DNA of 64,000 nucleotides, from positions 4,184,201 through 4,248,200 of the forward strand of contig NC_092679.1 in the NCBI RefSeq assembly GCF_964355755.1, given 5' to 3'. The notes under the pieces were generated by a model that saw only the letters and a list, made by a program, of their open reading frames with translations, made no database searches and was not told where the DNA came from. Made by a program: the position numbers and the translations under genes. Source of the stretch: Antedon mediterranea (Eukaryota > Animalia > Echinodermata). Shown piece by piece: positions 2,173 through 43,000 of the stretch. Each line of letters opens with the position of its first letter. Within the stretch, counting starts at the first letter, position 1.

Positions 2173-4917
2173 ATGGTGTCCAGATATTATATTATTTGTT
2201 ATGCAGTCATGCTATTAGTGGTCGTGTCTGCAAAAAAAATAAAAACTGAAGAAGAAGGTAAGAGATTCGTTCTTGTTTCTGTAGACTGTAGTACTAGTAG
2301 ACAATTGGTTCAGGGAGTAATTTCTTACTTTGTACTACTAGTTTTTTTATTTATTTGTTTAATTAAACTTTAGCAGGGTAACCCTAAACAGCATATTCTG
2401 ACAATCAAGGGGCCCTCATATAACATATAAAAAACATACATGAAAAAAATATGAACTATATGAAAAAAAAAAAACTACTATGCTCTGTTACTGCTAAATT
2501 GTCCGGATTTGATCTTTAAATTTAGAGAACATAGAGTTAAATCCTTTAGTCAAAATGCTAAGATTTAAGTTTGTGAAAGGGCAGGGTTGAATCCATCAAA
2601 TATTCTCTATCCTTCCCTGGCCACACCCTCACAACTTTAATCTGATATTTTAAATTAAGTGACACCTAATTTATTTAATTCTGAATGTTATATATTTGTT
2701 ACGTTCTTAATATTTTTTATTTGAAATAAAGGATGATTTTATTACTATTATTGATACTTAATATTATTATCCTACTGCCCAAATGTTTATATACAAATTA
2801 GAGATTACGTTAAAATGAAAATATTTCATGTTTGTGTGCTAACATAGGTGGTTATAATACTACAGATTTATTACAATTACATCCAGTGATAACATCCCCA
2901 GCTGTAAGTGGACCATATGAAATGGTTATAGGAGAAACTCTGCATTTATCTTGCAACGTCAACAAAAAAGTAGACTATGTAAGTTGATATTGTGTTGGTT
3001 TGGTAAACATTGACAAAGAGTGAAAAAAAGGATAGAATAGTTGTAAGAAATGATGAGAAAGATAAAACACAAAACATTGCATACAGATGAGTAACATTTT
3101 TTTCGCTGAGGCCCAACAACAAAATTTGATCAAATGAAAAAGATGGGCTTATATTTGGATACGGACCTAAGCCTTATCATACCAGGGTGGGACAATTTTA
3201 AATATTGTGTTTAAAATTTACCATTGACTTAAATTCAATTTAAAGTTATTTTTGTTTTCCAGAATTTTCAGGGCCACCGGCCAATATTCATGTGGTGGTG
3301 TAATTCAACTGCAAAGCCTTGTCATAATAGTAGCGCGCCATTATTATGTAACATTTGTATTAATGTAACCAAAAGTGGCAATGAGGCTAACACATCCAGT
3401 ACTGAATTGACTATTGAACATGTCACCAAGGCCAACACCAGTACATATACCTGCATTGCATTTACTGATGATGATGACTATAGTGCCAGCCCAGTAAATA
3501 TCAGTATTCAGGTCATAGTTCACGGTATGTGCTTTTGAATAAATATGGCAACATACTGTCTCATTTGTACATGCTTACAACAAACAGCTAACACTAACAG
3601 ATAAAGAGTACAGCTAATGAAAAACATCTCAAGTGTACAGCTAACAATAAACAGCTAAAGAGTACATCTAACAGCTAACAACAAACAGCTAAAGTGTACA
3701 GCTAACAATAAACAGCTAAAGAGTACATCTAACAGCTAACGACAAACAGCTAAAGTGTACAGCTAACAATAAACAGCTAAAGAGTACAGCTAACAACATA
3801 CAGAAAGTGTACAACAATAAATAAAATAGTACAGCTAATAACATACAACTAACAAAAACAGCTGTATTATTATTATTCATTATACAACTTTTACAATTTT
3901 AGATCTAAAAATCGATAAACTATTCAAAAAATAAACTTCTCGAACAACAATTTTCTATATTAAACTTAATAATTGATGTTTTACAGAAAAAGTTAAACCA
4001 AAGTTGACAGTTACACAGAGTGTGATTAAAACTATAGGAAGATTTGTTGAACTTGTTTGCATCGATAGTGTGGGCTACCCAACTACTAGTATTTCATGGT
4101 ATAAGGATAGTCATTTTGTACATAGTGGTAGGCTTCTGCGATTAGACAATGTTAGCCACCATGATGCGGGAGTATATCATTGTTCCGCAGTGAATCGTTT
4201 CAATCGAGTGAATTCATCTGTTATTCTCAAGGTTCAGGACGATAGTAAGATGAAATGAAAGGCTTGTACCCTTTTCACATGTGCCTTGAGAAATCTTGGG
4301 AGATAAAGCTTAGTTGCGCGCTATTTGATTACTATGACTGGTCAGTTTAATACCAGGGCAATACATGCGCGCAGTAAGAACTCGGGACATCTCGGAACAA
4401 AAAAACATCCTCTCATCAGTGTGTTTTTTTTTCTCCAAAATTGTCTTAACAGTATGCAAACATTTTTACAACTTTGCTTTTTGCAGGTGTGAAAAGGGTA
4501 TAAAACCTCTATTAGTTTCCAATACTTTTTTTCACATTAATGTGAATTCAAATCTACACATTGAAAAATAACCCATACTTTCTGAATGAGGTTTAAATAT
4601 GAGCTAAAGGGTTTTGACTTGTTTTAACTGTGAGAAAATCCTAGTACTGGGTACGAGGATTGAACCAATTTCTGTGGTTTTTTTTTATAATGATATTTAT
4701 TTTTATTTTCATAGTGATATTTATTTATTTTTATAGTAATGACATCTTTTTCTTTATCCTGTTTATTACATAAATGGATACTTTTGTAAACTTCGTCTTA
4801 TTTTGAATAGTTTCAGAATCATTCACTAAATATAATGTGATTGTAGGCTGTCCAGCAGCACTATTTGCAATTATTGGTAAGCTTTGTTGTTATTTTTGCC
4901 TTCATAGCCGTCCATAG
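2173..4917 (+). CDS. Two-Ig-domain cell-surface protein, paralog A (signal peptide, Ig1, Ig2, hydrophobic C-terminal segment)
   Basis: GT-AG exons at about 2173-2257 (MVSRYYIICYAVMLLVVVSA signal peptide), 2866-2978 (GETLHLSCNV), 3263-3524 (FMWWCN...STYTCIA), 3987-4244 (VELVC..VGYPTTSISWYK..DAGVYHCSAVN) and 4811-~4917 (NVIVGCPAALFAII). Phases are compatible. The 3' end is uncertain because there is a possible donor at 4877. Confidence 0.8.
3583..3862. repeat. Degenerate tandem repeat of ACAGCTAA/GTACAGCTAACAA units in an intron
   Basis: Repeated acagctaac/aaacagctaaagagtac motifs. Confidence 0.8.
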
Positions 4918-5866
4918 CTTTTTTGTGTTGCTGTTTAACATTGTGAGGTTTTTGTACAATAATGCGTTAGGCTGGTTAAAAACTAGGCAACCTGTAGTAT
5001 CCTTAAGTTGTGCATGCTTCATTTACTCTCTATTCTTAATTCTGGCCCCGAAACCTTGACTCAGAAATACCGGGATGGTGTCCGGCGGGGGATAGTTTTA
5101 CCATAGTTAAGCTTAGTTACATTTTTTTTTCACATTATTGATTGTCTCCATCCCCGAAACCTCGACTAAGAAATACCGGAATGGTGTCCGGCGGGGGATA
5201 GTTTATTACCATTAGTTAAAGTCTAATGTAAAGCGGGGTCAGTGATCCATTAGGCGCTATATAAATACTGTTTATTATTGTTATTATTATTATTTATAGA
5301 ATAAAAAAAAGCGCCCTTTAGTCAGTTATAATTATATTCAAGAGGACAGAAGCATTAGGAAAGTATCACGAGGAAGCTTATAGTTACTAAGGCTGAAAAA
5401 TGAATAAAAAATAAAAATAAACAAAACTAATTGATAATAGATCATTATTTCTTAATTATTAAATAGAATATCAATTTAAAAAAAGTATCATTTAATGAAG
5501 AAAGAACAGTAATTAAAACTATTGATTGGTGTTTTTTTTGTAAGAAATATTTCTTGTTTATTATGAAACAGGTATTTCTGTTTGGATTTACATACGAAAG
5601 GTTCAGGAGAAACGTAATTGCAGATGCATGTCCAACCCAAGCCAGGCAGAAAATGAAAATCTGATTAATTAAGAGCAAGATTTGTCCCTAACAATTACCA
5701 ACAAAGTTCCAGTTATTTGTGTTGTCTTTAATCAAAGGTAGGTCTTATCTAGGCCTATTACAAAACAAAAGTGTGTGACATTATATTGAAAGCTCTGTCC
5801 ACACTATCAAAGTAGTTCGACCAAAAATGTGGATGCCATTAAATTGAAATATACTGTACTAACTAA

Positions 5867-6009: not shown

Positions 6010-7553
6010 AAGTTAGAGTGGTAATTGAGTTCTGTTGGCTCATTTCTGATCAACTTGGTAAAACATGGTATAAACATAAACAGTGGTTATTTTTGAAAAC
6101 ATTTATTTTTTTTCAATTACAATTAATTACAATTGCATTATTGCAACAAAAAAAGTTGACCTGGTCAGTCACGCTTGTGCTTTTTAATTATAAAACTAAT
6201 TTATGCAGCTTTTTTGAAAATTAGGAAATTATGCAAATAAAAAGAATGCAGGTTAATTTATCAATAATTTTGATATAATACTGCGTATATATTTATATAT
6301 TATTTATAGTTTTTATATTATATAAATTTCATATATACGTCATGAAACACCGTGGGAAAAAATCTATACTGTTTATAGGTACAATTTTTTTTTGTCACAA
6401 AAACTTCTTTTTTACAATTTTAATGACTTTATGTTAGTTAGTTTTCTACAGATGAAATTGTATAAAAAAAAATTTTTTTTAGGCTGATTTTACTTAAATT
6501 TGTTTGTATAGTTGCGTGACAATGTTTAATGTGTCATGACAAATATGTACAGTACTACTACCTATTCAAAAAATAAATTCTCTTTTAATTAAATACAAAT
6601 ATACAATTTAATGAAGAAATATGCACTCTGAACATTTAATATAGTAAGTACAGCCTCATATTTTGATCTGAGTGGAGTCACTAAAACTTTGATTTCCACT
6701 TGGATGCAACGACATTGGCACAAAGTGAGGTGACCAATCACAAGCGACAGTTCAGATGGTCCATCACGTCGTGATTGGTCAAATTATTGACGCCCTCTTA
6801 TTTCCCACTGATTGCATCCAAATGGGAACCAATCATTAGTGTCCATTCCTTTTAGTTGGTTTAAAGTTTATTTTAAGATTTTTCATTCAGCCTTGTTGAA
6901 GATATGTAAATATTATAAAAGTGTATATGAATACAAAAATGTCGACTTTCATAAATAAATTGCGTTTATTTCAATTTTTTTTCTAGGAGTAATACTAAAA
7001 TCTACATTGGTTTCACCCCCCCCCCCCATGTACATACTCCGCGATACGCTGTGTTTGTTAAGGGGCATACAACCGATTGTGTCGCAGCCACAGATAAATC
7101 CTTTAATCTCTGAAACTCTCCATTCTGTTGTTAGATTGCCTTGGTTGAACACTGAAATTGATCTAAATTGAACTAAATCTAGGAAGCAAAAAGCATGCTT
7201 GGTAATTTACACTAGTGGCTATATCTTATAATATCTAACATTATATAAATAATATAATATTTATAATAATAATAATAGTGTATAAACATTAATATCATTA
7301 GTTTTTCTACTTTAACGCAGGAACTCTGATTTGCTTTGAAACAAATCCTAAACCCTAACATCCTCCTAAATATAGGAATACAGTATATTTTGTTGGTTAA
7401 AACACAACCATATTATTACAACACTTACATTCATCAACGAATGTGTTATCGTTATATTCTCAATGATACATACAAAAATACATACAAAAATACATAATAT
7501 TTTGTATTTTTTACGGTTTGTATGTTTGATGTCTTTAATAAATAAATTCTCTT

Positions 7554-8083
7554 CTTAAAGATGTATTGACAAATTTAAAAAAAAAATAAAAATTCCGAAA
7601 AAAGTGGATCATTTTGAAGTATTATAATAGTTATTAACTTTCACCAAAAATTAGTCTAAAAAAAAAATCATTTAACTGAAATACAGATGTTTTTTTGTTC
7701 AAAAAATAACTTTGACTTCCAGTCAAAGTTTTCGATCAAAACATGTCCCATAATGGAACGCGGTTGTTTGTCTACTCTGTATGCATAATCATAAAACTTC
7801 CTCGCGATCTGTGTGAAAACACCTTCTTAACAGTGATGAGTTGTACACAATCCAAATTAGCATATGCATAATGCATACTCGTGGTTTGAAATCTTTGTTT
7901 ACTTTAGCTCGCGACGATTTTTCAGACGAAATGTAATAAAACTAATTTACCTGTTAATTACGTAAACTTGTTGTTTTTGGCTCGAATTTTGAATAACTTT
8001 AATATTACTTTGATATTGCCAATTTAAATTTAGAATATTTTGACCTTCATTTTTTTGTGTTCCAAGAGACAATACATCTTTAA
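7554..8083. mobile_element. Non-autonomous DNA element with TTAA flanks (Kolobok/piggyBac-like); related shorter copy at 10021-10267
   Basis: ttaaagatgtattg...caatacatctttaa terminal inverted repeats. Confidence 0.6.
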
Positions 8084-8091
8084 ATAATTTG

Positions 8092-8114
8092 AAATAAATA
8101 AATAAATATAAATA
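8092..8114 (-). promoter_or_regulatory. Candidate AU-rich element (overlapping AUUUA) in the 3'UTR of the IL-1-like gene
   Basis: The minus strand reads UAUUUAUAUUUAUUUAUUUAUUU about 70 nt after the stop codon. The AT-rich background lowers specificity. Confidence 0.4.
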
Positions 8115-8180
8115 TGTATTTTTATATAGAGAATGTAATTAGAAATACAGAATTCAATTATATTGAATTATAGGACTTTT

Positions 8181-10927
8181 TTATCTGTCACTTGGCCCTT
8201 CATCTGTCATAAACATTAGCGCCATTGGATTTGTTAGTGAAGGGTAACGGTCTGACCGGAGGTACATTGCGTAATTGTCGGGTGACCTTGCGAGATAAAA
8301 TGGTGTCCTTGCGTACTCTTTGTTGAATTGTTGATTGATCATGAACAAGAAGGAAGATGAACCCCACGATACGGGTTGTATACAGAAGAATGCTGAAAGT
8401 CCTTCCTGAAAATAGAATAAAATGAATTATAGTATAATGCACTGTTATTAATATTTGTTCCCAAAAGGTTTCCAATTTGTGAAATGTCAATTGTACATTA
8501 TAATACATACACTGCATTGTTTTGTTTAGTTCGTACTACCTTGTTTCCACTTCGGTTTTGTTTGAATAAAAAAAGTTGATGGATGTTTTGAATGATCATT
8601 TGTTTGATTGATTGATCATTTATTTTTATCGATTGATTGATTAAATTGGTTCAGGTTTGCTTGCTTGTGTTATGCCACAAATCCTGGAGATTGGTTCTCA
8701 CTAGCACGCAAGGCAAGGGCGTAAGCACAACCAATCATCCATCGCGTCGGGATAGGTCAATTTACTTTCGTTGCGCTTATGTACGTGCGTTGCGCTTACG
8801 TACGTGTGTTGCACTTACGTACGTGCGTTGCGCCGTGCGTTGTGTTCAAGTGGAATATAACAAATAATCACAAATTCAGACTTACTATTTCGTTAACTTT
8901 TATTTTATCTGTGTTAACGGCCAAAAGAATGACCTTGTCGTCTTTCTGGTAGATACATAGCTGATATGGAAAACTGTATTTGTCTGATTTTGTAGGATCA
9001 TGCATCATCAGCTGTACCTGATTGTTGCGCGTCTGACTAATCTTTCTAAATTGTATTTCAGCTGTAATAAAGTATAATTTAAAATGAATATGAAAAAATG
9101 TCATTAGCTGAAAGGTTAAATACGTAATGTTTTTTAGATAAGTTACTTTTATACGAACTCTGGAAATTTCTTGGGGAAAACCAGATGAATGCGTTTCTAT
9201 CAATCAATAGGGGCGTTTTCAAATTATTGTTTTGCAGAAGTAGGTTACAGCTGAGCTCGCCATGTCAAGATAGGAACTCGTAACAGCCCTTTGATCTTAT
9301 GTCTGGCTGCGACAAATACAGTGCAATCGTACTGCACTGTACTATGTATATTCTCCGCGGTGTCTGTTAAAGGAGCGTGGAACTGATCGTGTCGCAGCCA
9401 CAGATAAACCCTTTGATTGCCGGAGCTCAGCATCCTGATTTTTGATTGCCTTTGTTAGTTTCTGCTCAAAATATTAAAACAGTACTTACATGCTAGGCTC
9501 TTGTTTTTATCATAAGCGTATCCTTTAAAATCAACACTGTAGCCTTTCAAATTTGATGGCAGGCCTACTGCCGCCTTCTTTGTTATCTGCAGTGCATTTC
9601 TTCCCATATTTTGCTGATTTGACCAAGGCAAAAAATGCACAATGTCCCTGTCTGCGGGATACTAAAATTTGAAATAATAATTAGAATGCATATTATTTTA
9701 GGCCCCTATGTTAAAATGGCGACCATCTTGGATTTCAACATGGTTGCTAAACGAAAATATTTACTTTAATAGCAATATATTTGGAATCTAAGTAGGCCTA
9801 TAAATATAGACACCATTTTTAACCTGCTATGTTACTCTATAACCCATCTTGGATTTTAACATAGCGGCTGAAATAGTATTTATAACTTTAATAACAATTT
9901 ATAACATATTATTTGGAATCCTCAGTATCACAAACGTATAGGTATAGATACCATTTTTAACCATGCTATGTTACCACAAAACGATTCAAAGTAGTTGTTT
10001 TAACGAACACTATTTTCCAGTTAAAGATATATTGTCCCTCTTAAAAAACTGTTTTAAATTTTTGTTGAATACCGGTATGCCAAATAATAGTTATTCACTT
10101 TGACCAGAAATTGGATCGAAAAAAAGTCAAATTGGCTGCCAGCCAATGAGTTTTTGATTTATTTTATCAAATTCAAAAATGTCCACTTAATAAGTCAAAA
10201 CATTATTTTCAGATAAAACCACAAAAAGTCTTGATTTTTCATGTTTTGGTGGACAATACATATTTAATACAATTGTCCCCGTTCGATTTTTTTTCTTTAA
10301 AGAACCGGAAGTTTGGGTGCGGTCCCGCCGTCACATGAACAATGATTTATTTACAGCACCCGGCCACTCGGGGAATTTCCCCAAAACTAGCAAGTATGAT
10401 TTGAATACATATTCGAACAATTAATTATGGTTAATGGTAGGCCCACTTAATCAATCATTGCCTCTTAGTTTAAATTTCTTAATGTACGTTATCTACTTTT
10501 GTTTCGGCTGAACTTGTACTAAAGATTCGTACGATGATTGTATTAAATGTAATCTAGGGCTCTACCGGTATTTGACCCGCATCCACAATAATTTGAAAAC
10601 TAATTGAAAGTGCTATCAATTAAGTATGGTATAAAACATCAGGATTGGTTTCCACTTAGACGCAACGCAATGACGTAAGCGCGCCGCAAGTACTATTTGA
10701 CCAATCACGCCCTACGTGTTTGCGCTACGTTCAAATGGGAACCAAGCTTTAAGTATATTCGTGGTTAAGAAACTTACCCTAAGTTCGATTTCGGCGGGAG
10801 GGATGGGATACATGCTATCGACTTGATCATCTCCTCTCAAAACTTCATTGTTATTGTATCCTCCAGCTGGTTGCAATTTCTCTGAATCTGATAGATATTT
10901 CTGTTCTTCTGTCATTATAGGCGGCAT
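8181..10927 (-). CDS. Leaderless 240-aa protein, putative IL-1-family-like beta-trefoil cytokine
   Basis: Four exons: 10927-10778, 9661-9490, 9061-8886, 8405-8181 (150+172+176+225 nt). Canonical GT-AG sites, phases 0/1/0, continuous ORF. The gene model is well supported; the family assignment is inference from strand pattern and intron positions. Confidence 0.7.
9250..9455. repeat. Interspersed repeat; copies at about 52005-52205 and a partial copy at about 7045-7150
   Basis: Shared ctgagctcgcc..aagataggaact..tttgatcttatgtctggctgcgacaaat..gtcgcagccacagata with an internal inverted repeat. Confidence 0.75.
10371..10380 (+). promoter_or_regulatory. Perfect NF-kB site in intron 1 of the IL-1-like gene
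   Basis: GGGAATTTCC within GGGGAATTTCCCC; matches GGGRNWYYCC. Confidence 0.55.
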
Positions 10928-11019
10928 TATAGTTTTGCTGTAACTAATACGTTTTGCGTATAATATGAATAGTATGTTTTGCTGCTTAGGCTTTACTGAT
11001 GATAGAAAAATTCGTCGAG

Positions 11020-11155
11020 TCTATATAAATTGTACTTTGATCGTTAATCCTGATAAGATGATTGGTTGACTTGCGTTATTGCGTCACTCGCCGATACTTA
11101 TGAACTGAAATATGAAAATGAAACACTTCACTGTAACATATTTAGGGATTTTTCA
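11020..11155 (-). promoter_or_regulatory. Candidate proximal promoter of the IL-1-like gene (TATA-like, CCAAT, C/EBP-ATF-like TTGCGTCA, IRF-type GAAAATGAAAC, Rel-type GGGATTTTTC)
   Basis: Motifs at about 11022, 11060, 11079, 11114 and 11145, within 230 bp upstream of the ATG at 10927. Confidence 0.45.
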
Positions 11156-13727
11156 TTATTGCATCAATTCTATATATGGATACTGTGTTTTTTATTATAA
11201 CTTTATTGTGTTGGAATTTGGCGGGTGGGAATAAATAGATCTTTGATTTTTGCTTAATCATGCCTGCATGCACCCCGCGAGTGCACCCCCTGCGCGTGCA
11301 CTAGACCAGGGAATAATGGATGGTGGGTACATGTTTTATACATAGTCGTACGTCAAGCTATATTTTTTCTTGGTATTAAAAATGTATGGCAAAGTAAGAA
11401 GGCATCTACGATGGTGTGTTTTTTTTTATTTTGATGCAAATAAAAGATCCTTTTTGTTTGCAACCAGCTACCTATACCATTAGCTCCCCCACTCCACCAC
11501 TGTTCCCCCATACTTCTATTCCTTCCCACTATCTCTTCCACACACCCAACCGCCCCTCCCCCACCCCACCATATCTCCTATACTCCACTTATCTCAACAC
11601 CCCATCAAGTTGTTATATTTTCATTCATTCATTCGTTTTATTATTCCACATAAAATAAATCATTTTAAATCAAGATATCCTTGTTACGGTTTTGTTTATC
11701 GGTGGATACGTTCAAAGCCGAAAGGGGCTTTCGGGCTGAGTTTCCAAAGGACATTATATTTTTGTTTATGGTAAGGTAAAAACAACAAAAATACGCAGGA
11801 TGTTAGAAGTGAAACCAGAAACAACTTTCATTCATTCAGCATAACTATTTTCTATTGTGTTTGACCATAGATCCGGAACTATTCCATATGAAGCATATTT
11901 ATGTGTTCATTCATTACAGTAGTATTTGTTTATACTAGATTTCCGTTTTTACTAATAATTATTTTCTATTGTGTTTGACCATAGATCCGGAACTATTCCA
12001 TATAAGGCAGATTTATGTCTTCATTCATTTGTAATTACAGTAGTATTTGTTTATACTATTACTAGATTTCCGTTTTTACTAATAATTATTTTTACGTTTT
12101 CCCAATCCGTTTAAGGTATATACAATAAAACCGCTATATGAGACCATTGTAGGCCTTATGCGTTTGAATTTTCAACTCCCCGGAAAAAAAAAAACTTTTT
12201 TTATGCATCAAAAATAAAAGGAATTTCGAAAGATGTTTTGCAGTTAAGATGTCCCATGTGTGGGTGCCGAATACTCGTGATGCCGGTCACAAGACGTTAC
12301 TGCAAATGTAAGCTGAAACCGGCAGATATATAAAAAGAAATAATACATTGGCTTGAAATGGGAATCCCCTTCTGAGGAACCGCTCAAGCATGACGTGGAA
12401 TTCATATTGTATAAGCATCCTCATTGTTTCTTCTAAAAATATCGGGCTTTTTTTTATGAATTGAAGTGAAAACCGTGGAGGAATTATTTAGAATAAACTC
12501 ATTATTATATTGTTTACTTCAAAACGCATTACAATGGAAATATTTCAGTCGTGTGTTTGTGTTTGGCATTTTGCTTACGTTTTTGTTTTTAAAACTGATA
12601 GCTATACCCCTCCCCTTGAATAGCCTTCGAATAAGCCCAAGCCCGTTCTCATAAAAAAAAATTAATAAATAAACCAAAATATAAAAGACTTTTGTGTGGT
12701 TTTGAGTTGTGCCTTTGGAAATTCCCCGAGTCGAAATAGGCTTTTGAAAAGCATCACGGTAGCCATTGAATACACAGCAGAGGGAGTTGTAATTAAAACT
12801 CCCTGAATACAGCAGTTATAGTGTGCATGATCATAGAGATATCGGTATGATAATGTCAATTGTTAAACTGTTAAGATTTTGCTTTCTGTTTAGCCAGGGG
12901 TGTATATACACAATTCTAGAATGATGAACATGAATTAATAAGTTTTCTTTCTTTTTCCCCGAATGTATTAGGCCTACTAGGTTTACCAAATACACTAGAA
13001 ACCAAATTTAATGCGCGAATATGCTACGATATGAGGAATTATGATAATATACAAAACAATTATGAATAAATAAACTTGGACTTTGCATCATAACCTGACG
13101 CAAAGGTATGACACTAAACAGGACATTTATAACAACAATGCATTGAAAACGACATTGCATTATTTTAACATGACTAATATTATAACACAAACATAATTAA
13201 TTTTATCAGCAAGGTTAATGTCCGAAAACCATTGTTATACAAATACTGCTGAACAACTGTAAATAATAATTTAAGGATTTGGAAGATACTTTGATGACAG
13301 ATCCGGTGCATTTATCACTTATTTGGTCTAACAAGCTATCACACTGACGTAAGTACCGATTCGTAACGTAGGCCTATATTGACAATAACACGGTTGCTCT
13401 GGGGCTGGAATCGAACCCACCGCTCCCACCAGATTATTACTAGCCTGACCATTGGGCTTCTCATTGATTATGGCTACGTTTGATTCTCTTGTAACAAATC
13501 ATTTAAATTATACTTCGCACCACCGCAATTAAAAATCATATGTAAAATATTCTGTAGCCCTACTGATGATTGAGGAGCCTACGTGGTAGGGATTGGGATT
13601 CCAATGGGATTTGAACCTGCGACCTCCAATATACATACTTCGTGAAATGTGTCTTGTGACAATGCCACTGTACTGTTCCGTAACAACCTCCTATGACAAA
13701 AACAAGGAAACTTGGTTCTTTCCGGTA

Positions 13728-13762
13728 TGACTCAACTTTAGGGGAAATTCCGAAAATGAAAA
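13728..13762 (+). promoter_or_regulatory. Compact AP-1 + NF-kB + IRF-type element upstream of Ig paralog B
   Basis: TGACTCA (13728), GGGAAATTCC (13742) and GAAAATGAAA (13752) within 35 bp, about 100 bp upstream of the ATG at 13863. Confidence 0.5.
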
Positions 13763-13862
13763 TACCTGCGTTTTATATTTAATCACTCCTCGTATTCTTA
13801 TGTTATGGTTACAGTATTTCAACATAATATCCGCTGCAGACTTTAATGGAGTTGGTGCTAAA

Positions 13863-16800
13863 ATGAAACCGTTCTGCAGCTGTACGATTATGTACTTATT
13901 GGTGGTAGTGTTTAATGGCTTTACAGTTAGTGGTATTGAAATAATCAAGTCTTTCTCACAAGATAATTATTGTAATAAGAAATCAGGTAATAAATACACA
14001 ATATTGTTTATAAAATAGACCTACTTTGATGGATTGTAGGCCTATAATAAAACTTTATGTGACAAAAAAATGTGATCTGCCCATATATGGACATGATGAT
14101 GTCATATTGGTTGAAGGTTCTTTGTAAATTCTTTTATTATTGATATATTTGGATATTTCTTAAATAATTTATAATAAATCTATTTTTTACTTGTTTTTTT
14201 TAGTTTTAAACATGTTAAACTTAGGCCTATGTGTTAGAGAAAAGATATTAGTTAAATTGTTTTTTGGAGTTTCTGTGTTATATTATTTATATTTTGTTTT
14301 GAGGAGCCTATTCACCACAAGCTTTGCTTTCTTTTAGGCTCCTCCACTTTATATTTATATATTTGTAAAGTGAAATAAATAAATGAATGAAATGAATTGA
14401 AAATATTTGGGCATATCACAACCATATTTGTGCACATCACATTGTTTTTTGATTTTTTTTTTTTATTGTCACATAACGTTTCATAGTGTAGACAGACTTG
14501 TTGGTGATTGCATTTGAAAATGCCAGCCATCATTTTTTTGGCCTCTAATTATTTATCGCTTAACTTTATATTATTTGTAATTTTAGTGTTTTTTTTCTTA
14601 TATTATTTTGATGTATTTTTCCGTAGAGAGCCGCATGACTGTTATTTTTATATTGATTTACCTTTCGGTCTGTTTTCATGTACGCTTTGTTAATAATAAT
14701 GGCGAAGCCTGATATGATTATGATACTTATAATTATTATTTAAACTACCGTTTTACATTAAAGGTTCGTTTGAAAAATACTCTTTTTTATAGAACATTCA
14801 GCGCTTCAAACAAAATTACCTTGTTTTTGCCCGAAAGAATGGTATGATGGTCAATTTTTAAAATCTCTATGTCCCACGATTGAAACACGAAAAAAAGAAA
14901 TACAGTTAATTAAAGGAGAAAATGTAACTTTTGAATGTCGTGTGTCTAAAAAACTTGGACCGGTATGTATAATGTTACACTACTTTATCAAATATTAATA
15001 GTATAGGCCTATTATACCGATTGAATTAAAATATAGAGGATCGACACCCCTTTATATACTTGGTTCCCACTAGGACGCAACGAAAGTAATTGACCAATCG
15101 TAGGCAATTATATTATATTCGAACTGTCGCTAGAGCTTCGTTCTCACTATAACGCAACGCATGCGCAAGACTCAAACGCAATGCAAGCGTGTTGACCACT
15201 GACAAGCGACAGTTCAAATAATCCATCGCTTGTGATTGGTCAACTCACTTACGTTGCGTCCACGTCCTTGCGTTGCGTTCTAGTGAACCAAGCTTAATGT
15301 CATTGGTCAACTCGCTACGTTCTTGCGTTGCGTCCTACATGCAGTATAGTATAGTGGGAACTTACTTTTCCCATAAAACGAATGATGGCAATATGTGTTT
15401 TCACTAAACGACCAACCCACAGGGGATACCCATATTTAAGCGTGGTTCCCACTAGCGACGCAACGCAAGGACGTAACGCAACGCAAGTGAATTGACCAAT
15501 CACAAGCGATGTCTTATTCGCTTGTGATTGCTAACTGTCTATTCGCTTGTCATTGGTTAAAACGCTTGCGTTGCGTTTACGTCCTTGCGTTACGTTCTAG
15601 TGGGAACCAAGCTTAAGAGGGGAATGTGTCGGGTCCCCGGAAGGGGCTCTGGGTTCTACAAATAGTGATAAATGATTTCCTATTTGATAAAATTACAAAG
15701 ACTATAACGAAACGTATCAAATTTGTGACATTTTATTGTATAATTTTCTATTACAGGACCCCCACTATAAAATTCGTATGTGGTGGTGTAATGGAACGGC
15801 GGGTGAAAAATGTTACACGAATGAACAAGCACCTGACCGGGGCACGCCTACTTATTTTGTCTATTCAGAGAGTGGGTATGAGGCTAAGGAGTGGTTTATA
15901 CGTTTCACCATCACGAACGCCAGCAAAATGGATGAGAATACGTACACGTGCGTGGCAAACACGGAGGATTTTGATTATACAGAAACTCCGGGCTATAACA
16001 GCATTCACGTGTCTGTACATGGTAAGTATTTCTTTATTGTTATAAATAAAATGATTATTTCTTTTCTTAATGAACTCACTTCTGAGGACGATCCAAGCTT
16101 ATTGATCGAAACGTCGAGAAACTCAACAGTTCTTTTCAAAACTAATAAACGTGGTGTACCGCAAACTTTATATCAACACTTAATGCACTTGTTAATAATG
16201 AAAAATTCCCCTCTATTTCAGATGCTGTTAAACCAAATCTTATTTATCAACCACCGCCAAAAGTCAACAAAGTTGATGGTAGACTGGTAGAACTGTACTG
16301 TGCTAGTAGTGGATATCCAGAGACTAATATCCAATGGGTTAAAAATGGAACACCACTAACAAACGGCCTAAATAGCACCAACATTATACAATATGGAAGC
16401 CAATCAGTTTTACAGATTAAATCGATAACTGAGTCGGAGGAAGGAACGTATCAATGTATTGCGTCTAATAAATTAGATTTAATTGAATCACAAGGAACGA
16501 CGGTGACAGTCGGTAAACAACAGCAAAGTAAGTCTCCGTAAATTTAACAATATTGGTATTGGTAGATATTTCGAAATAAATTTGGCGGGAAATTTGGTCA
16601 TGTGGTTCTTATTGTTTTCGTTGTTTTATAGAGTGGAGTTGGTTCATTTGTCTATACATAGCAATAATGTCGTTCAGTGGTGTCGTCACAGCCATAGTGT
16701 TGGTGGTAGTATGCTCAAGTCGGCGAGGTTGGTCTTTTTACGATTTTGATATTAACTTAACGATATTCGTTCACGTCAGTGGAGTGATTAATACCAGCAA

Positions 16801-17829: not shown

Positions 17830-20800
17830 ATGGCTTCAGATTCAGGAAAACAGCTTGTCAAAAGTAAGAGTGGATTACGTATGATAAGTATTGAGGAGAA
17901 GGACAATAGTCCCTTTCAACTTTTAGAGCCACCATGGGTACCAGATATGCAGGTGGGTATGCAAGTTGTCAGTGAAGTCTAGCCTAGGCCTAGCCCTAAC
18001 TAGCCTAGGCTAAATAGGCTAGGCCTACGGGTATTCAGGCCTACTACTAGCCTAGGTAGGCTAGGCCTAGCTAGGCTAGGCTAGCCTTAGTAGGTAGGCA
18101 GGAGGCTAGATAGCTAGGCTAGGGCCTAGTTAGGCCTGCCTGGGCCCACCCAACTCCACCAGGCGCCTTAGTAGGCTAGAGTAGTAGTAGATAGCCTAGG
18201 CTAGTAGCTAGGTAGTATAGGTAGCCTAGCCTAGTTAGCTAGCCTAGCGCCAGGCCCCTGCAGGCCTGGCCTAACTAAGCCTAGCTAGGTCTACACAGGG
18301 CCTAGCTAGGCTAGTAGGGCCTGGACCTAGGCTAGGCCCTACGGTTGGTGAGCTGATTAACAATCAAGGCAAGAAAAGGGGAGGGCTAGCCTAGTCCTAT
18401 ACGTTAATCCTATCTATCTAGGCCTATTCATTTTAACGCAGTGGTTAGGAATCCGGCACCGGAACTCAACTGCACATTGTAACAAATCCAGACAGAAACT
18501 TTACACACTGAGAACTAAACCTAAAACTAAAAACATCCCTCTAGGCAATGGTGGGTAAAGACGATGATGGATAAAGACGATGGTCAATAAAATACAATTT
18601 TTTGAATAAGAAAAAAATTCAAAATATATAAAGAATTGAACCTACAAAATCTAGCCGCAGTACCACACCACTAAGCCAGCCAACCAGTCGGAAAAATTGG
18701 TGTGTACATGAGGTTATAAAAATGTGCATGCATGAGCAGAGGGGTGGAGGAGGCAGGGTGTATTTAATGCCTCTACTACAGTATTAACTATTAGTAAGTG
18801 TTAGCTTGTCAATTGTATGACCCACTATACGACCCCCCTGGGAGAGTTGCATAATTTGTCTGATGTGTGTGATACCATGACGCACCTGTCTGTGTATAAA
18901 AAATATGACTTGCCTTTAGGTGATTATGACACACCCATCTTTATGCACTGTGATCATGTTTATGATAAATATAGTGGGTGGTAAAGTAACGGGCACTGAC
19001 ACACCATTCATTGCACATTGTTCATTGATGTTGCGTACCATTTAGGTTTTTTGAGCACCCCTGCATCAATACTGATTTGTAAATGACGCATCCATGACAC
19101 ACCTCGCCCATGGATCGTATACTAGTGGGTCATACAATTGACAAAGTGCATAACTAAGACTACCTGATAATTGCTATTAAATATTTCTTTTTTTTTAGTC
19201 TAAAGAGTGTATTAAGTGCCATTCAAAATTTGACTTAATGAAGAGAAGGGTAAGGATTTCAAACGTTGTCGCATAAAATAATATATGACCACATGGCTCG
19301 AAATTGAAACAAACTCCGCAAATCTAACTTGAAAAATTTAAAAGCTAACTAGCAGACTATCAAACGTATATTTAAAAATAAATTACAACCAGCAAAATAC
19401 TTTGGAAATTTTTCAATATCAATTACAGTGGAGTTGTGGCTTGGTGGTTTATGATGCTTGGCTAACAATCCTGTTTTCAAGTTCTGTCAGTTTCTATTAA
19501 CAATTAACTCCACTCACAAAGACTTGTAATAAGAGCATCTTGTGTTGTTTGTCTTGTGAACATTATTCCCACCTTTTTGATAGTGAATGAATTTGCCTAT
19601 GATTTGCCTAAATACAGTATATATAAAAACATCAAAACAGTATGAAAAATCTACTTGCTATGCTAGCTAGTATATTATGGTGAATTTCAAGCCCTGTCGC
19701 ACAGTAGTAATTTATTCGTTAGCAGAAACAAAACTTTAAATCAGATATGCGTTTTCATTTAGCATCATTGTCGACGATGTGGACTTTGTTTCTGCAATGT
19801 CTGCTGTGCTAGTAAAGTCGGTCTTCCTCGGATGAACTTTGTTGACCCCGTCCGTATGTGTTCTGAATGTTCTGTTGTCACGAAAAAAGAAAATGAATTT
19901 TATGACAAGCATCTGAAGTGTTTGATTACTGGAAGTTTCTTCATGTTATCAGCTGCTGATGCTGACGAAGATAACATTGTGACATATGTCAAGCTCACCG
20001 CTAACCACAGGTGAGTCTCTCGTTTTATCCATGTCCCACCAAATGTCCATTAATTAATATAAAAAAGTAAATAAATAAAAGTGTATGCATGGTATGATCT
20101 CGAGTCAACCAGCAGTGAAGTCAACTGATACTAAGTGTGTGTGTTCAGAAGAAGATGGCTACAAGAACAGTAATAACATTGCTCAGTCTTGTACAATCCT
20201 ATTGGTCCAAGTACAATACTTAAAATATCTGGTCAACAAACATAACCACCTTCTTTTGTGCCTGGTTGTCGTGTCATAGTTTCCACAGTAGGCTCAATCT
20301 CATTGAATAGATCTGTACTTAGTGTGTCACTTTGCAATCACATTTCAAGCCAAATAAACAATAAACAAACATCTAATTCCCCTTTTCATTCCAATAAAAA
20401 AAAATGTTATAATAGTGTTTTGTATAAAACTTAGGGGTGACACAACATTAGGCACTTTATAAATCCAGGATATTATTATAATCTTACTGTACAGTAATAA
20501 TGGTAATAATATTTATTTGGATCAACACTTTTTTAACAGTGGCACACATGCGTAAATGGTGCTTCTATACAAATTACAAAATTTAAACAACACAATTACT
20601 TAAAAAACTATACACAAACAATGGAAATTAAAAACTGAAACTAAAACATTTATCCTATTTGATTGAGAACTAAAATATAAAATTTGACTAAAGGCTTATT
20701 TACAAGACTTTTTAATACAACAACTAATTTTGCAACAGCAACGGAAAAGAAAGCACACATTTTAAAATAAAACAGTTCAAAATTGTTATAGAATTCAGTA

Positions 20801-26331: not shown

Positions 26332-29300
26332 TTATTGTAGACATGAAAATATATCATCTAACTCATCTTCATCAGTTCTATCATGTATTTCGTTGCTTGG
26401 TAATTTTTTAGGCATAATTCCAGATGTTTTATCTATCTTTTCATTAGCTTTCTTATGTTTTCTTTTTGTACTTTTATTCTCAACAATTATGATTTCTTCT
26501 TCTTCAACCTTTTTCCTCTTTTTCTTTTTAACTTCCTTATCTGCATTGTCACTTTCTTGTAGTGTATCAACCGTATCACAATACTCATTGCTTTCTAAAT
26601 ATATTGTTTCTTTTTTCTTCTTTTTCTTAATTTTCCTTTGACCTTTTATTTGTTTAGTGTTATCACCTTTGACCTCCTCTTGAACCACTGCTTGTTCATA
26701 TATGTTTTCATCATGCTCATGCCTTTTCCTCTTTTTCTTACCTTCCTCATTGCTTTGATTATCAACCAGAGGCATGTCTACTTCTTTCATTATATCTGTT
26801 TTGTCCATCATTTTTTTTGCATTATTATCATCACATTCCTCATTTTCTTCAATTTCAACTTCCACACTACTTGTGTTAACTTTGTCTCTAACTTTCTTCG
26901 TCTTTTTCCTTTTTTCTTTTCGCAAAACTTCCTCATCATCATTTATAGACTGTTCATTTGCTTTTTTCATTATTTGCACTTTAGTACTCAAATCATCAGT
27001 GGTATCATCTTCATCAATCTTTGTCCTGTACTTTTTTTTCTTTTTCTTTCTTGGAATCGCAACTCCTACATCTTCTGTGGAAGTTACTCCTGAAATAATT
27101 CAATATGTATGTTTAGTATATATCAGGTTTTGTAGATTTGCAAATAACATTTTTTTAGTGGAAAGATTGTTTTACCTAAAAGATGTGGATTTTGACCAAC
27201 CAACTAAAAGACGATGAGAGTAGAAATTGGAATTAGGGCCTAGGAAATACATTAACATTGCAACCTGCATTTTGTACCTGTCTTATCGTCATTATGCTCT
27301 CTTTGGTTTTCTGCGTTACTAGTGGCAGCTTCGTCTTCACACAACAGTCGTTTTTTCTTCTGTTTCTTCTTTTTATGAATGATAATGTCATCATCTTCTT
27401 TTGTAACTGGCTCTAAAATTTAAACAGATAATATAAATCTTTGGTATATAAGTATGTCTAGCATCAATTGGGCTACACTGAATATACTATTGTGTTGTCT
27501 TAGATTTTCTTTATTAAAAATGGTTTACTTACCTCCGATGTCCATCTCACTACATGCTTCCATTGCCATGTATAAATCATCATCTTTGCTTAAGTTTTGC
27601 TGAACAACATCAAGATTTTCTGGTGGCTTCTGCAAACTTCCAAACATTTTGCTGAGTGTGTCTTTCTTTGTTTTCTCACTAATATGTTTACTGTAAAATG
27701 GAATAGAAATATGATATAACTAAAACAGATTGTCGTAAGGTTGTCTTCAGCAATGCAAGTGAGTTTACCAATCACAAGTACCAGTTTGGATGATCACATG
27801 TTGCGATTGGTTAAATTACTTACGCAGTACAACCTAGTGGGAACCAAGCTTTAGACCCATGCATTAAAAAACTGATGTAATCTACATTAGTGTATTCGTT
27901 CCCAGTACCGGACATCTTGGACTGGCCAACTATGTCTGGTTTTCTGGAAAGTCTGGTACACTATTTGGAATGTGTTTTAAATGGTAAAAAGGAATTTGGT
28001 CCCTAAGAAAAGTCTGGTATTGGTAGAGTTTCTGGTTTTCAGAGAGTCCGTTATTGGGAGACTTGACTGTATTTAGAGTAAACTTTACCTTCTGCTTTTG
28101 AGAGAAGAAGCATCCAATTCCACCCATTTCGATAAACAATGAGGTAATTCTTTAAATATCTACAGAAACAAACGGAACCTTTATTCTACACATTGTGCAA
28201 AACGGAAGGCGATACAAAGATGTAAAATGCATGTTCCTTATAATACAGATGATGTCATAACATCAACTATACCGACACGTTATAGGAACTACAGTAGAGG
28301 ACCATATCAATTTGTTGGAATGAAGGATGATTACATTACATAATTTTAATAATGATATTGCATGTGAGAACAGGCATATATGTATTTAAATTGTATGAAT
28401 TAATGACTCACTGTATAATATTCAGATTGCTCGTCGCTTAAGCCAAAATTTCTCAGAACTTCGTACCACAAAAAAAGTTTGACTAAAACACCTTTCACAA
28501 GAACCCTGATGAAGAGAGAAGTACAAAATTGTGCAAAGTCATAAAAAAAAATGTCTGTCTTATCAATCATGTTTTGAATTTAAGGTATATGCTATACTGT
28601 TTGTAAACAATTTTATTTAAGATACATGATTCTATCTTTTTATGGGCATACAATGCATCGATTGCCAATAAGTAATGAATAGCATTAGCAGTGAAGTGTA
28701 CACTCATACCATATTCTACTGATGAGAGCTACGAAGAATATGTTCTGAGCAACGAACTGACCAATGCGAAGATTTCCAACAATTAAGCTAATTTAAAAGT
28801 TAAGAATGTTAACAGTTACGAATGATTACACTGCTTTATATATGTAATGTAAAATTATTTATCATTTTTCTGGCACAGTTGTACACACAGTATCTTTCGT
28901 ATCTGAAGGATACACAAATGTCTGCTCGCTAAGCTGCAAGATGTGGCTGCATAGTTTAGACAATCCAACTAGTTTTTCCAGCAGGAACTTGGTACAAGTT
29001 GCACTTGGAACTTGTTCCATATCTTTGATGTGCTTTCCACTGAAAAAAAACCCCCAAACATATGATCTATTAAGGACATTCTTTATTGTTAAAAATAAAT
29101 TTTAAGTTTTTTGTTAAACCAGTTGTAAACTACTTACTTGCTACGTTTCGGCTATTTTTAATAGCCTTGGTCACGCAAATGACGTTGACATGATGTCCTG
29201 TCATTCGTAACAACTGGTTTAACAAAAAAGTTAAAATTTATTTTTAAATATCCATTTGAAACCAGATGAAATTTTTTGAGAATTCTTTATTGTATTTACA

Positions 29301-34900: not shown

Positions 34901-37900
34901 ACAATATTCTTCCTATTAATATCAAAAACTTTTGCTAATGTCATTTCTTTGAAATTCAGTTATTTTGTTAGTATTGCTCAGTTTTTGATCCAGCAAGTCA
35001 ACAGTTTTATACCCTAATTAACCCCTTAGTATCTTGTGGGTAGGCATATATAATGGTACGACTTGTAAAGTGACTGTATGTAATGTTAAATAGGTGTATT
35101 GACATTTAGCATGCCATAATACCTAATATGTAAAATTTACTTGGATCTTCAGTTACCCTTTCTTCTGCCCGTTCTTTGTTTGTTTCATTTATTTTCCACA
35201 CATTGAACAAAATGGAACAGATATTTATACCTAAAAAAAGATAAAAATCTAAATCTTTTTTTTTTGCAGATGGCTTCTGACTCAGTTTTAATAGAATCTT
35301 CTGATGTTGCCATTGGCTCGTTGCTTTACTCTAGCTACGAGCAAGTGGCTAATGAAAACGTTGAAATTGAAGTTGTAACTGATGTACAAGCAACTAACGT
35401 CTTAGAAATCCAAGCCAGCTCTACAGATACTATAATTAATAATGACAATACTATTGATAATATTGATGCACCAACAAATAATAATGATAATACAATAATT
35501 AATGCGCAAACAACTAACACTGAATCAACAGTTAATAATGACGCCGCAAACAATTCCAAAAACGCATCCCTTGAGTCGCCAAACTCGTCCTCTGTTGAAG
35601 AATCAAGGCCTGTGACCGACGAAATTGCAACCGATGAAGGAGTTTTAACAGATGAGGTTGCGGATGATACAACGTTAAAATTTACAATAGTTGAAGGCGG
35701 GTCACAACGTGCAAAAAATAAGCTTATTGATAGCGAGGGTTACTCCTATACCGTACAAAGAAGTAATGACAATGGCTGTGTCACTTGGAGGTCAGTTTGC
35801 TAATTTTCTTTTACAGAATTTTAATGACACTAGTAGATAAAAAAATGCTATTAACCCTTTGAAGACGCAAGGTTTCTACCCAAAGTTATTGAGGCTAAAT
35901 AAGGTATTTTGAATAGGTTTAGGAAAAAGTCAACCCGTACATATATATACAAGCCTCGGGTCCTGGGACAGTAAGTTACCCCGTATGGGATACGGGCCAA
36001 GTCTTGAAAGGGTTAAATAAATTCATCTGGTGCTGAATATAATAAACAGGAAAACGATTACATTTGTGTCTGTATTATTTGAAAAAAAAAAAAGTAATAA
36101 TTTTTCTGTTTAAATTTAATTTTCCTAGATGTTCAAAGCGTGACAAGACGCTGAACTGTCGTGTCTTAGTCAGACAACGAAAAGATACTTTTGTCAGGAA
36201 CCGCAAACACGAACACCCAGGAAATCCAGGGCAAAAAATAAAATCGGCAGTTGTGTCGGACATCAAACGGAAAGCTTCACAAGAAATGTGTACACCTGTT
36301 ATTGATATAGTTCGGCAAACTCTATCTGAATATGTAGAGGCCGGAACACTTTCAGTTTTACCGAGTGAGGGAGCTCTTAAAAGACAAGCCAAGCGATTTC
36401 GCTTAAATTGTCAAAAACCAGAAGAACCAACGGATTTGGACTTTACACTTGCAAATCATGCAATCCCCGAAGGTTATATTTTTTTACATACATTTTATAA
36501 AGACAAAAACCTCTACTAGTAAACTTTGTAGGAAGTTAAAACAATTTCTACATCATAATCGAATTACATAAATGTATAAAGCTCTGTCTGCACTATTAAA
36601 CTTTATGTGACAACAAATTTGATGTGCCCATATATGGATATGATGATGTCTTACCACTACCATATTTGGTCATATCACCACCATATTTGGTCATATCACC
36701 ACCATATTTGGGCAGATGACAAATTTCTGTTTAGACATTCTACCATTGGCAGTAATCCTGGCAATGCCACGGAAGTTGTTTTTCAAAACAAGATTTTGTA
36801 GACTAAATAAACATCACACTGTCGTAAAGAGCGATTTAATCACATATTTTCTTTTCTCAAATCAGGTTTCCTTCGTGCAGATATTGTCCGTGGAAAACAG
36901 CGCCATTTACTATTCGCCTCTGAAGAACAACTTGATGTTCTTGCCCGTGGAAAGAGATGGTACATTGATGTCAATTCCAAGATGTTGAAAGAGCCTTTTA
37001 CCCATCTTCTGACTGTACATTGTTTTATACAAAGAGAAATCGAAATCAAACAGGTAAGTATTGACCCAGTTGTAATACTGTAGCAGGATGTTTTAGATGA
37101 AACTATTGGGGGCAGCTCACATGCCTTGGCAGTGGGTCATTGCATGACATAAAAGCAAAATGAAAAGACAAACAATATTTATACTGCTTTAATAGCCTAG
37201 TAATATAGATTCTGTGTACTATAAATGTACATGTGTTAGTGGTACTCCAATCAACTTACTCAACAAGTATTTATTTATTTATAATTTGAAGTTTTTCTCT
37301 GACAAATGTAGGAAATCTACTCCCCCTCCCTCTCATCATTTCTAACATACCATCTCACTCTCTAACAATATTTCAAAAAATTGCACATAATGTGACAATT
37401 ATCTTTTGATTTTCTCTAGGTACCACTTTGCTTCGCTATAATGTCCAACAACATGAAACACGATTATATTGGCATTTTTGAAATGATTAAAAGAATCTTA
37501 CCCCGAGAAATCAAAGTGCAAGAGTGTTTTATGGATTTTGTGGACAATTTATGGGAGGCATTTTCGCAAGTGTTTCCAGGCGTGACAGCGCGTGGTTGTT
37601 CGTACCTTTGGACGCAGGCGATTTGGTTTAAGATTCAAGAGCAGGGCCTAGTGAAGGCTTACCTGAGCAAGAAAAAGACTCACTCTAGGCTTAGGAAGCT
37701 GCTAGCTTTGCCTTATATGCCAAGTGATATCATTCCTGAACTGTTTCTACAGCTTTTGGAGAAAGTTGATCATGAAAAGGAAGACCTTATGGAGGTACAC
37801 CTATTTATTTATTGTAGTCTTTAGCATACAGTAGGCTAATATAGTTTCTAAACAGAAAAATATTTTGTCCTACATGGCGTTTCATAGCTATACTTGACAT

Positions 37901-40006: not shown

Positions 40007-43000
40007 ATGGAGATGTTCTGCTTAGAACGAAGTCAACCAGATTTTCCAAAACGTTACGACTGCATTCCTCTTTCTCAAACGAATGAGGTTTGTTTGTACA
40101 ATAAATAATAGCAAATAATAATAGCAAATAAAAGTAGATTACTTTGTAACTGTACCTGCATACACAAATGTCAACGGAATGTTATTATGTTTTGAAATAT
40201 GTTGGCTAGGCCTAGCTTTTAGCTATAGGCCAAGGCCTCCTAGGCTACGGACTAGGCATAACTAGCTAGTTATGATGGGCACAGGCCTAGGCTACGGCCT
40301 AGTAGTAGGCCCGCGACTACTGTATACTTATTAATTAAGGCTAGGTTTTAGTTCGTTTGATTAGTAATAAAGCCTGCTGGGGCTCAGGCTAGCTCTGCTG
40401 GGCCTAGGCTAGGCCTAGGCCTAGCTAGAAAGAATTCTCTCCCCGTCCAATAATGTTGATCAATAATGAAAGTAATTATATTAGGCCTAGCTAGGCTAGC
40501 CTAAGTATGGATAGGTTCCGGGACCTGGGTGCCGGACCGGTAGGGGGCCGGCGTTATGCCATCATAGCCTTATAGAATAGACGGGTCCTCCTAATCTAAA
40601 TATCAAAACCTAGGCCTACCAAGACCTGTCAATTTAAAGTGTTAATTTAACGAAATATTATGATATATATATATATATATATATAGACTTCTAAGCTACA
40701 GTATTAGAAGTCTATATATATATATATATCATATTTTGTTACAGATTAGCCTAGCAAGCTAGGCCTATATAAGTTATAAATAACTGAATCAAACTTATTT
40801 TCTTGTTTGCCGTTATTACTAAGAGCGGTGTTTCAGAGTATTAAAGCCATCTTTATTAATATTAAAATAAATAATATATAAAAAAAATATTTTGGTCAAA
40901 TTTATAACTCTGTTTTATAGGTTTCTATTGGAAGAAGTAATTTTGTCAGTGTACAGATATTATCCAAGGATGATCCCCTGATGTTGTCACGGAAACATGC
41001 CATTATCAGTTATCTTAAAGATATCGATAAATGGGTTATTTTAGATAACAAGGTTGGTAAAATTATTATACAGTACTCTAATCTGAAATCGGTGTTTATG
41101 CATTATCAGAATGTGCAGATGCATCGTGGGTAAACGGCTCCAAGACTAATCTTTGAATATCTTTCTCAGATCAACATTTATTTTATCATCAAAAACAAAC
41201 AAAACAACATCAATATAAACTTATATTGAGGCAGTTTTAACTTATTTGATCTTGATTTTTTTCTATATCCTGCCTATGCAGCTCTTTGATTTATCAATAT
41301 AATACTATAGATCAGGAGAAGTACCTGTACATAAAGGGCACAAGACTGATATACAAATATCATTCTTACCTGCCGCTTGCCTACAAGAATTACACCATGT
41401 ACAATACTATCAATCTTTTATTTCTTTTCTAGAGTTTAAATGGTATTTATATAAATGATTCAAGAATATTGCCCATGAAACAATGTGAAATAAAAGAAGG
41501 AGATTATGTTTATTTTGGACAGCCATCCCAAGCTAAAAACCCAACTGACTTCATATATAAATTTATCAAAAAACAATTAAGTTCTGCTGAAGTGGAAAAA
41601 ATAAACAGTAGATTGAATCCTGCCTCGAAACCAAAGAGTCTATCGCTAGGGGATAAAAGAAAATGGGGACCTTCTCAGAGTGGTGATGGAAATACTGACC
41701 CTAACCTTAACTCTGGTATTATAAATGAATCTCCAAGTACATCGGAAAAGGTCGAAACGTTTAAAAAAGCAAAGTTGAAAGCAGAAGAAGAAAAGCAAGC
41801 AGCAGAACAGAAAGCGAAAGAAGCGGAGGAAAGATTAAAAGTTATGGAAGCTTTAATATTGAAAGAAAAAGAAACGCTGAAAGCTCAATACAAAGAAGAG
41901 CTGAAAGTTAAAGAAAGTAAACTTCTGCAAGAGTTACAAGCAGAAAGAGAACGATTAGAATCTGAAAAGAAAGAATTAGAAGAACAAATGAATGAAAAAT
42001 TTAATGTAGAAATGAAAGAAAAAGAAAGCTGTTTACTTGAGAGATTAAAAGCACAACACACACAATTAATGAATGAGAAGACGAAAATTCAATCAAAGTT
42101 AGAGAAAGAAATGGAAGAGAAATTAAGTGAAAAAGAACAAAATATTTTACAGTTGGAAAAAAACATGCAAGAAAAACTTGAGAAAGAAATTCAAGAGAAA
42201 GAGGAGGAAATGATGCAGGAACACATGCGGCAAAAAGAAAATCTGTTAAAAGAAAAGGCAACTGTTGAAGAAGAACTTAAAAAAGAATGGCAGAAAAAGT
42301 TAGAAGAAAAAGATCTTAACCAGCACACTGCACAGGAAGAGATGAGGATTGGTCTTGAGACAAAGATGAAAGAGAAGGAAAAACAGATGCTGGAAGAATT
42401 AACCGTGCAGAAAGAAAAACTCCTTGCTGAGAAAAAAATGGTGGAAGAAAATCTGCAGAAAGAGATGGAAAGGAAGCTGGATGAAAAGAATAAAGATCTC
42501 CAGTCGAAACTGGAAGAAGAGAAACTCAAGTTAGAGACGGTGATAACAAACAAACAGCGGGAATTTGAAACATTGCAGACAGAGGTATGTGTTATTGTAG
42601 CTAAGCTCTATCTACACTATCAAACTAGTTTGACAAAAAAAAGTGTGATGTGTCCAAATATGGTAGTCATATGACAGCATCGTGTCCATATATGGGCACA
42701 TCAAATTTAATAATAAAGTTTGATAGTATAGACAGAGCTTTATACATTTACATATTCTACATTAGCTTTGATTATGATTTAAAAATTGTCGCACACTTGC
42801 TACAAAATTTACTAGCAGAGGTGTTTGTCTTTATGAAATGTTTTAAAACGTATGTAAACAAAAATTTAACCTTCAGGGATTGCATGATTAGTGTTTATAG
42901 TATAGAAATGGATGTTGAGCAACAGTGATTTTGGTATGTTGGTAGTCTTTCAACCACACCCTCTTGCATATATACCCTTCAACCCCATCTACAGTACCTC

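Follow-up and report, generated by a model that had tools for sequence, protein, structure and literature searches.

Does a small gene of the crinoid Antedon mediterranea encode an interleukin-1 (IL-1)-like cytokine that has neither of the features used to find IL-1 in invertebrates? The question arises at positions 8181 to 10927 of a 64,000-nucleotide window of contig NC_092679.1 (positions 4,184,201 to 4,248,200, forward strand), where the original prediction saw a highly diverged IL-1-like beta-trefoil and regarded IL-1 as vertebrate-restricted. That premise is outdated, as invertebrate IL-1 was reported in 2025-2026 (PMC13736523; preprint PMC12338702). Fontenla-Iglesias et al. 2026 described IL-1anc across Eumetazoa, found via a PDZ domain plus the F/LES motif (PMC13736523). 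IL-1 outside vertebrates is already published; what is new here is a candidate without both hallmarks and missing from that catalogue, plus its flanking receptor-like genes. We propose from structural models that the gene encodes a divergent IL-1-superfamily-like cytokine, a leaderless protein of 240 amino acids, and we give this assignment a little better than an even chance.

The candidate gene consists of four minus-strand exons separated by GT-AG introns of phases 0, 1 and 0, which together form a single open frame of 240 amino acids (P0001):

10778..10927, minus strand: exon 1, amino acids 1-50, an acidic, poorly conserved N-terminal piece with a candidate caspase site, DQVD/S, at amino acids 34-38
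9490..9661, minus strand: exon 2, amino acids 51-108, where the predicted beta-trefoil begins, followed by a phase-1 intron in codon 108
8886..9061, minus strand: exon 3, amino acids 108-166, followed by a phase-0 intron after I166
8181..8405, minus strand: coding part of exon 4, amino acids 167-240 plus the stop codon, with predicted strand 9 reading SFLFM, without F/LES

A database search started from exon 4 showed that P0001 is identical to XP_071962919.1, an uncharacterized protein of Antedon mediterranea. Three runs were compared at the locus: X1, which is RNA by the tool's guess only, X2 and X5. A 733-nucleotide contig of X1 covers 8051-8404, 8885-9061 and 9490-9661 without the introns, corresponding to exons 4, 3 and 2 and 130 nucleotides of 3′ untranslated region (UTR), while X2 and X5 continue through the introns. 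The candidate gene is real, and exons 2 to 4 are spliced. A second X1 contig (10778-11147) spans exon 1 and the upstream 5′ region. Junction 1 is not directly spanned; we infer it because 30 letters of the 733-nucleotide contig are unplaced and the second contig starts exactly at 10778. Upstream of the ATG the frame is closed by a stop codon, which leaves no room in it for a PDZ domain. Read depth also revealed high-copy repeats in the introns and the 3′ flank, at about 7550-8050, 9210-9450 and 9950-10310.

A phmmer search of 1.84 billion representatives (E value up to 0.001) returned only two proteins, both crinoid: P0001 itself and P0002 (XP_033096555.1, LOC117100835) from the feather star Anneissia japonica. 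The two share 42% identity over 238 positions and 48% over the domain, and 52 of 66 hydrophobic positions are kept hydrophobic. The N-terminal piece is variable, the exon-1 part being 13 residues shorter in P0002. The claimed lack of a signal peptide was borne out by hydropathy: within the first 35 amino acids of P0001, no 9-residue stretch has a Kyte-Doolittle mean above -0.68, whereas the leaders of the two neighbouring genes reach about 3, and neither P0001 nor P0002 has a hydrophobic N-terminal stretch by this measure alone.

We then turned to the fold. AlphaFold2 models of the two proteins were unusable (pLDDT, the predicted local distance difference test, of 34.5 and 30.8), and fold searches from them were uninformative; ESM Atlas models, on the other hand, had mostly beta-trefoil neighbours. 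The fold evidence consists of these Atlas models, with a predicted template modelling (TM) score of 0.62 and a pLDDT of 0.57 for P0001, and of 0.64 and 0.59 for P0002. The Atlas lists hold ten structural rows per protein, and 30 feature rows for P0001; the feature list of P0002 has named clusters only. For P0001, seven of the ten structural rows are listed at TM 0.49-0.55 over 138-165 residues, starting from near amino acids 31-55.

At this point a non-trefoil alternative has to be weighed, in which the protein is an all-beta crinoid orphan and its IL-1 likeness came from over-reading and weak models. The twelve hydrophobic segments that had been put forward as trefoil strands are all present, but their number is no higher than chance: by a simple count, P0001 has 10 hydrophobic windows against 11.0 in 2000 shuffles, and P0002 has 11 against 10.7. 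Furthermore, at least two more strand-like segments (amino acids 80-85 and 122-128) had been left off the list, which brings the number to 14, not 12. The low AlphaFold2 confidence and the Atlas's own caution that one third of shuffled proteins likewise get ten matches of one clan point the same way. However, two sequences that are 42-48% identical both yield mostly trefoil neighbours, with TM values of 0.5-0.73 and some 140-180 residues aligned, and low AlphaFold confidence is expected from an alignment of one or two rows and is uninformative. We consider the orphan very unlikely; according to the models, the candidate protein probably folds as a beta-trefoil over about amino acids 55-235.

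Which trefoil family it would belong to was judged from the structural and feature matches. For P0002, an IL-18 cluster heads the ten structural rows (TM 0.55 by query and 0.73 by target, 144 aligned residues, score 355); the next scores are 298 for a Kunitz cluster in row 3 (TM 0.58/0.60) and at most 290 for the others. IL-18 clusters occupy feature ranks 2-4 (0.88-0.89, 140-143 shared features) and IL-33 rank 7 (0.87, 137 shared), while the lectin and inhibitor trefoils listed share 91-122 features. For P0001, IL-18 clusters stand at feature ranks 16 and 19 of 30 (0.87), sharing 129 and 127 features, whereas the remaining named trefoils share only 89-112; a bacterial cluster takes rank 1 (0.90). 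Vertebrate IL-18/IL-33 (PF00340, PF15095) hence provide the first structural row and the highest shared-feature counts for the orthologue. They also resemble the candidate in having a short N-terminal piece before the domain and no leader; they differ in that the candidate has no profile match and no F/LES and scores under the naming bar.

The structures predicted to lie nearest to P0001 belong elsewhere. Any family label among its structural rows is ricin-type or toxin-linked, and the list is taken up by ricin-type trefoils and unnamed bacterial ones; ricin-B/CCL2 lectins and Kunitz/clitocypin inhibitors are its nearest neighbours (TM about 0.5) and take several feature rows. In P0002, ricin-B holds feature rank 1 and Kunitz structural row 3. 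The gene could encode a crinoid-specific cytosolic trefoil of one of these families, a lectin or an inhibitor, which may serve as an immune effector instead of a cytokine; the missing F/LES speaks for this reading, and an immune effector would also carry the kB sites and the AU-rich element described below. Yet Pfam gave no ricin-B, Kunitz or inhibitor match for either protein, QxW repeats number none in P0001 and one in P0002, and these families share 89-122 features with the two proteins, against 127-143 for IL-18/IL-33. Self-comparison showed no internal repeat, a weak test with two sequences. On balance this alternative is rather unlikely, and among trefoils the models moderately favour the IL-1 side, which is the leading family. 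By eye, amino acids 202-213 (FYLARSPDNYAM) look like the YLARDP hairpin of Acanthaster IL-1.6/1.7, and FKGYAY (amino acids 95-100) like FRGYSY of Patiria IL-1.4 (both in Table S2 of PMC13736523).

The intron positions had been taken as a further sign of IL-1. IL1B has a phase-1 intron just before strand 4 and a phase-0 intron just after strand 7. A phase-1 and then a phase-0 intron are indeed present within the candidate's domain, but they are equivalent to those of IL1B under only one of two strand numberings, both assigned by eye. With strand 4 at amino acids 109-115 and strand 7 at 160-166, as first proposed, both introns match; with strand 4 at 93-100, the phase-1 intron falls after it. 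By eye, amino acids 151-166 have the look of a trefoil hairpin, and the distance between amino acids 109 and 146 agrees with hemichordate IL-1anc entries in Table S2 of PMC13736523. Invertebrate IL-1 genes have two central trefoil introns of conserved phase (PMC13736523). FGF genes likewise have two conserved core introns (PMC11733497), and the coding exons of FGF5 measure 364 and then 104 bp (PMC2754481), which gives phase 1 then phase 0, as in the candidate. Since FGF5 has this pair, intron phases cannot tell IL-1 from FGF.

This brings in a third alternative, a highly diverged leaderless FGF-like protein. Leaderless FGFs exist, and FGFs are usually readily detected by profile. Fold class and ordered intron phases are shared with the FGF family (PF00167), FGFR3 appears among the weaker immunoglobulin (Ig) matches of one flanking gene (gene A; E 3e-7), and the kinase-less two-Ig products of both flanking genes could act as FGFRL1-type decoys. 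Against this, Pfam gave no FGF match, PDB sequence searches found nothing relevant and no FGF chain, and whole-protein isoelectric points are 6.2 (P0001) and 6.9 (P0002). No FGF or fascin row occurs among the Atlas matches listed for either protein, an absence that does not exclude FGF. We regard the FGF alternative as most improbable.

Coming back to the IL-1-like assignment, an AU-rich element and kB sites were sought as predictions of a cytokine reading, and both occur:

8095..8107, minus strand: AU-rich element ATTTATTTATTTA, three overlapping ATTTA, 74 nucleotides past the stop codon and within the spliced contig
10371..13751, no strand assigned: four kB-like sites, at 10371 in intron 1 and at 12360, 12717 and 13742 in the intergenic region between the candidate and the divergently oriented flanking Ig gene B

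The element ATTTATTTATTTA has two matches in the window against 0.15 expected from shuffles, and the only minus-strand match is the one in the candidate's 3′ UTR; the expectation for a given 130-nucleotide stretch is 0.002, though simple repeats may outnumber shuffle estimates. The second copy, at 37269, lies inside frames matching a MULE transposase (35207-37821). The kB consensus GGGRNNYYCC occurs at 11 places, 4 of them within 9662-13863 (binomial P 0.004, scan-statistic P 0.12), and is over-represented window-wide (18 strand matches against 2.6 expected). A further kB-like site lies at 1616, about 550 bp upstream of gene A, and two perfect sites 19 bp apart (53235-53263) are found upstream of a minus-strand AhpC/TSA-like frame (50942-51424). 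In exon 1, DQVD/S is a caspase-type site, as a candidate only. Several N-terminal regions of IL-1anc in Table S2 of PMC13736523 carry D/E-x-V/T-D-G-type sites that resemble it by eye.

Several observations weigh against the IL-1 assignment. In the Atlas, no IL-1 row is found among the ten structural rows listed for P0001, the first feature rank of P0002 goes to an ascomycete ricin-B cluster (0.89, 122 shared features), no named family reaches a feature score of 0.9 or the 170 shared features that true members typically have, and the structural rows, from middling models, all fall under the tool's naming bar. Pfam IL1 (PF00340), IL33 (PF15095) and PDZ had no match at E up to 10, the IL-1 signature of PROSITE as printed in PMC7144542 is unmatched in the candidate, and no IL-1anc was among the phmmer matches; HMMER likewise misses invertebrate IL-1anc (PMC13736523). 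F/LES, largely conserved in IL-1anc (PMC13736523), is missing: there is no [FL]ES in P0001 or P0002 and no [FLMY]xS in predicted strand 9. The candidate has no PDZ, only 50 amino acids preceding its domain. Both arguments of the original prediction, segment count and intron phases, are weak. DxxD/S appears in 4-8% of shuffles and the orthologue has only DG there; the kB clustering is not significant by the scan statistic and may equally serve the head-to-head gene B. Finally, GCC2, EIF2A, ESD, TRAF3 or a TIR-bearing IL-1R are the reported neighbours of IL-1anc (PMC13736523), and none of these was found among 13 Pfam-scanned long frames or by reading the 64-kb window. What stands of the initial claim is a likely trefoil with IL-18 in the first row for P0002; P0001 lies nearer the ricin type.

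With neither PDZ nor F/LES, the candidate falls outside IL-1anc strictly defined. PDZ is likewise missing from a minority of IL-1anc, among them crinoid AjapIL-1.1 (LOC117117896) and crayfish PclaIL-1.2/1.3 (PMC13736523). Like these, the candidate is small, leaderless and PDZ-less with a predicted trefoil, two introns inside the domain and Ig-receptor-type genes nearby, and AjapIL-1.1 also comes from a crinoid. However, AjapIL-1.1 retains FES, is a different gene from the candidate's Anneissia orthologue and has no sequence-search link to it; the candidate is about 25-35 residues longer within the domain than the PDZ-less IL-1anc, and its neighbours have no TIR. The three Anneissia IL-1anc loci are LOC117117896, LOC117117911 and LOC117106586 (PMC13736523). 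None of them is LOC117100835, whose identifiers turned up neither in the text supplements of that paper nor in a full-text search, the 80 further sequences of reviewer-only figures aside.

If the gene does encode an IL-1-like cytokine, analogy with known members suggests how it would work. NF-kB/Rel would induce it, and the AU-rich element would keep its mRNA short-lived. The protein would stay in the cytosol as a precursor, from which the exon-1 piece may be cleaved off at DQVD/S; the trefoil would be released non-classically or through cell lysis and then bind an Ig-domain receptor.

Candidate receptors flank the gene, both as exon models with junctions predicted from sequence:

2173..5672, plus strand: gene A, 298 amino acids, with a leader, two Ig domains, one membrane segment and a tail of about 25 amino acids
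13863..17063, plus strand: gene B, 352 amino acids, a paralogue of A with the same layout, head-to-head with the candidate

A and B are 35% identical over 201 aligned positions. The best matches of their Ig domains are general adhesion molecules; no TIR was found in 71 frames near the two genes, and neither has a kinase. In invertebrates, IL-1Rs carry two Ig domains, and putative IL-1R genes often lie in linkage with those for IL-1anc (PMC13736523); A and B are therefore candidate decoy receptors, position being their sole link to the candidate gene. The cluster of two-Ig genes may extend left beyond the window.

More boldly, crinoids could have a fourth IL-1 lineage, represented by this locus, in which PDZ and F/LES have both been lost, so that it is invisible to the published search. 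It would be flanked by its own two-Ig, TIR-less, IL-1R2-like decoys, one of which lies head-to-head with it and shares its kB sites. This is a long shot; if true, it would be a cytokine-plus-decoy module in an invertebrate and would imply that further IL-1s without the hallmarks lie hidden across invertebrates. The invertebrate catalogue was built on PDZ plus F/LES, and a member with neither would show that the family is wider and provide a seed for finding more. No ligand-receptor pair is demonstrated for any invertebrate IL-1 according to the discussion of PMC13736523; here a small ligand without a leader lies between two candidate Ig ectodomains, a pair that could be tested cheaply.

Elsewhere in the window, the next gene after B contains a ZFYVE21 exon (19763-20011, plus strand; FYVE E 2e-7, ZFYVE21_C E 7e-5), a possible synteny marker. 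Between them, at 17980-18430, lies a low-complexity stretch with many CCTAG/CTAGG palindromic units. A Lys/Glu-rich frame of 255 amino acids (26335-27099, minus strand) had no Pfam match. The MULE-matching frames at 35207-37821 (plus strand, E 4e-4) are interrupted by introns and possibly represent a domesticated Mutator-type gene. A plus-strand frame at 41433-42671 with FHA plus a long coiled-coil is presumably RNF8-like, and a PARP-type zinc finger exon (E 3e-9) is located at 57577-57885 on the plus strand.
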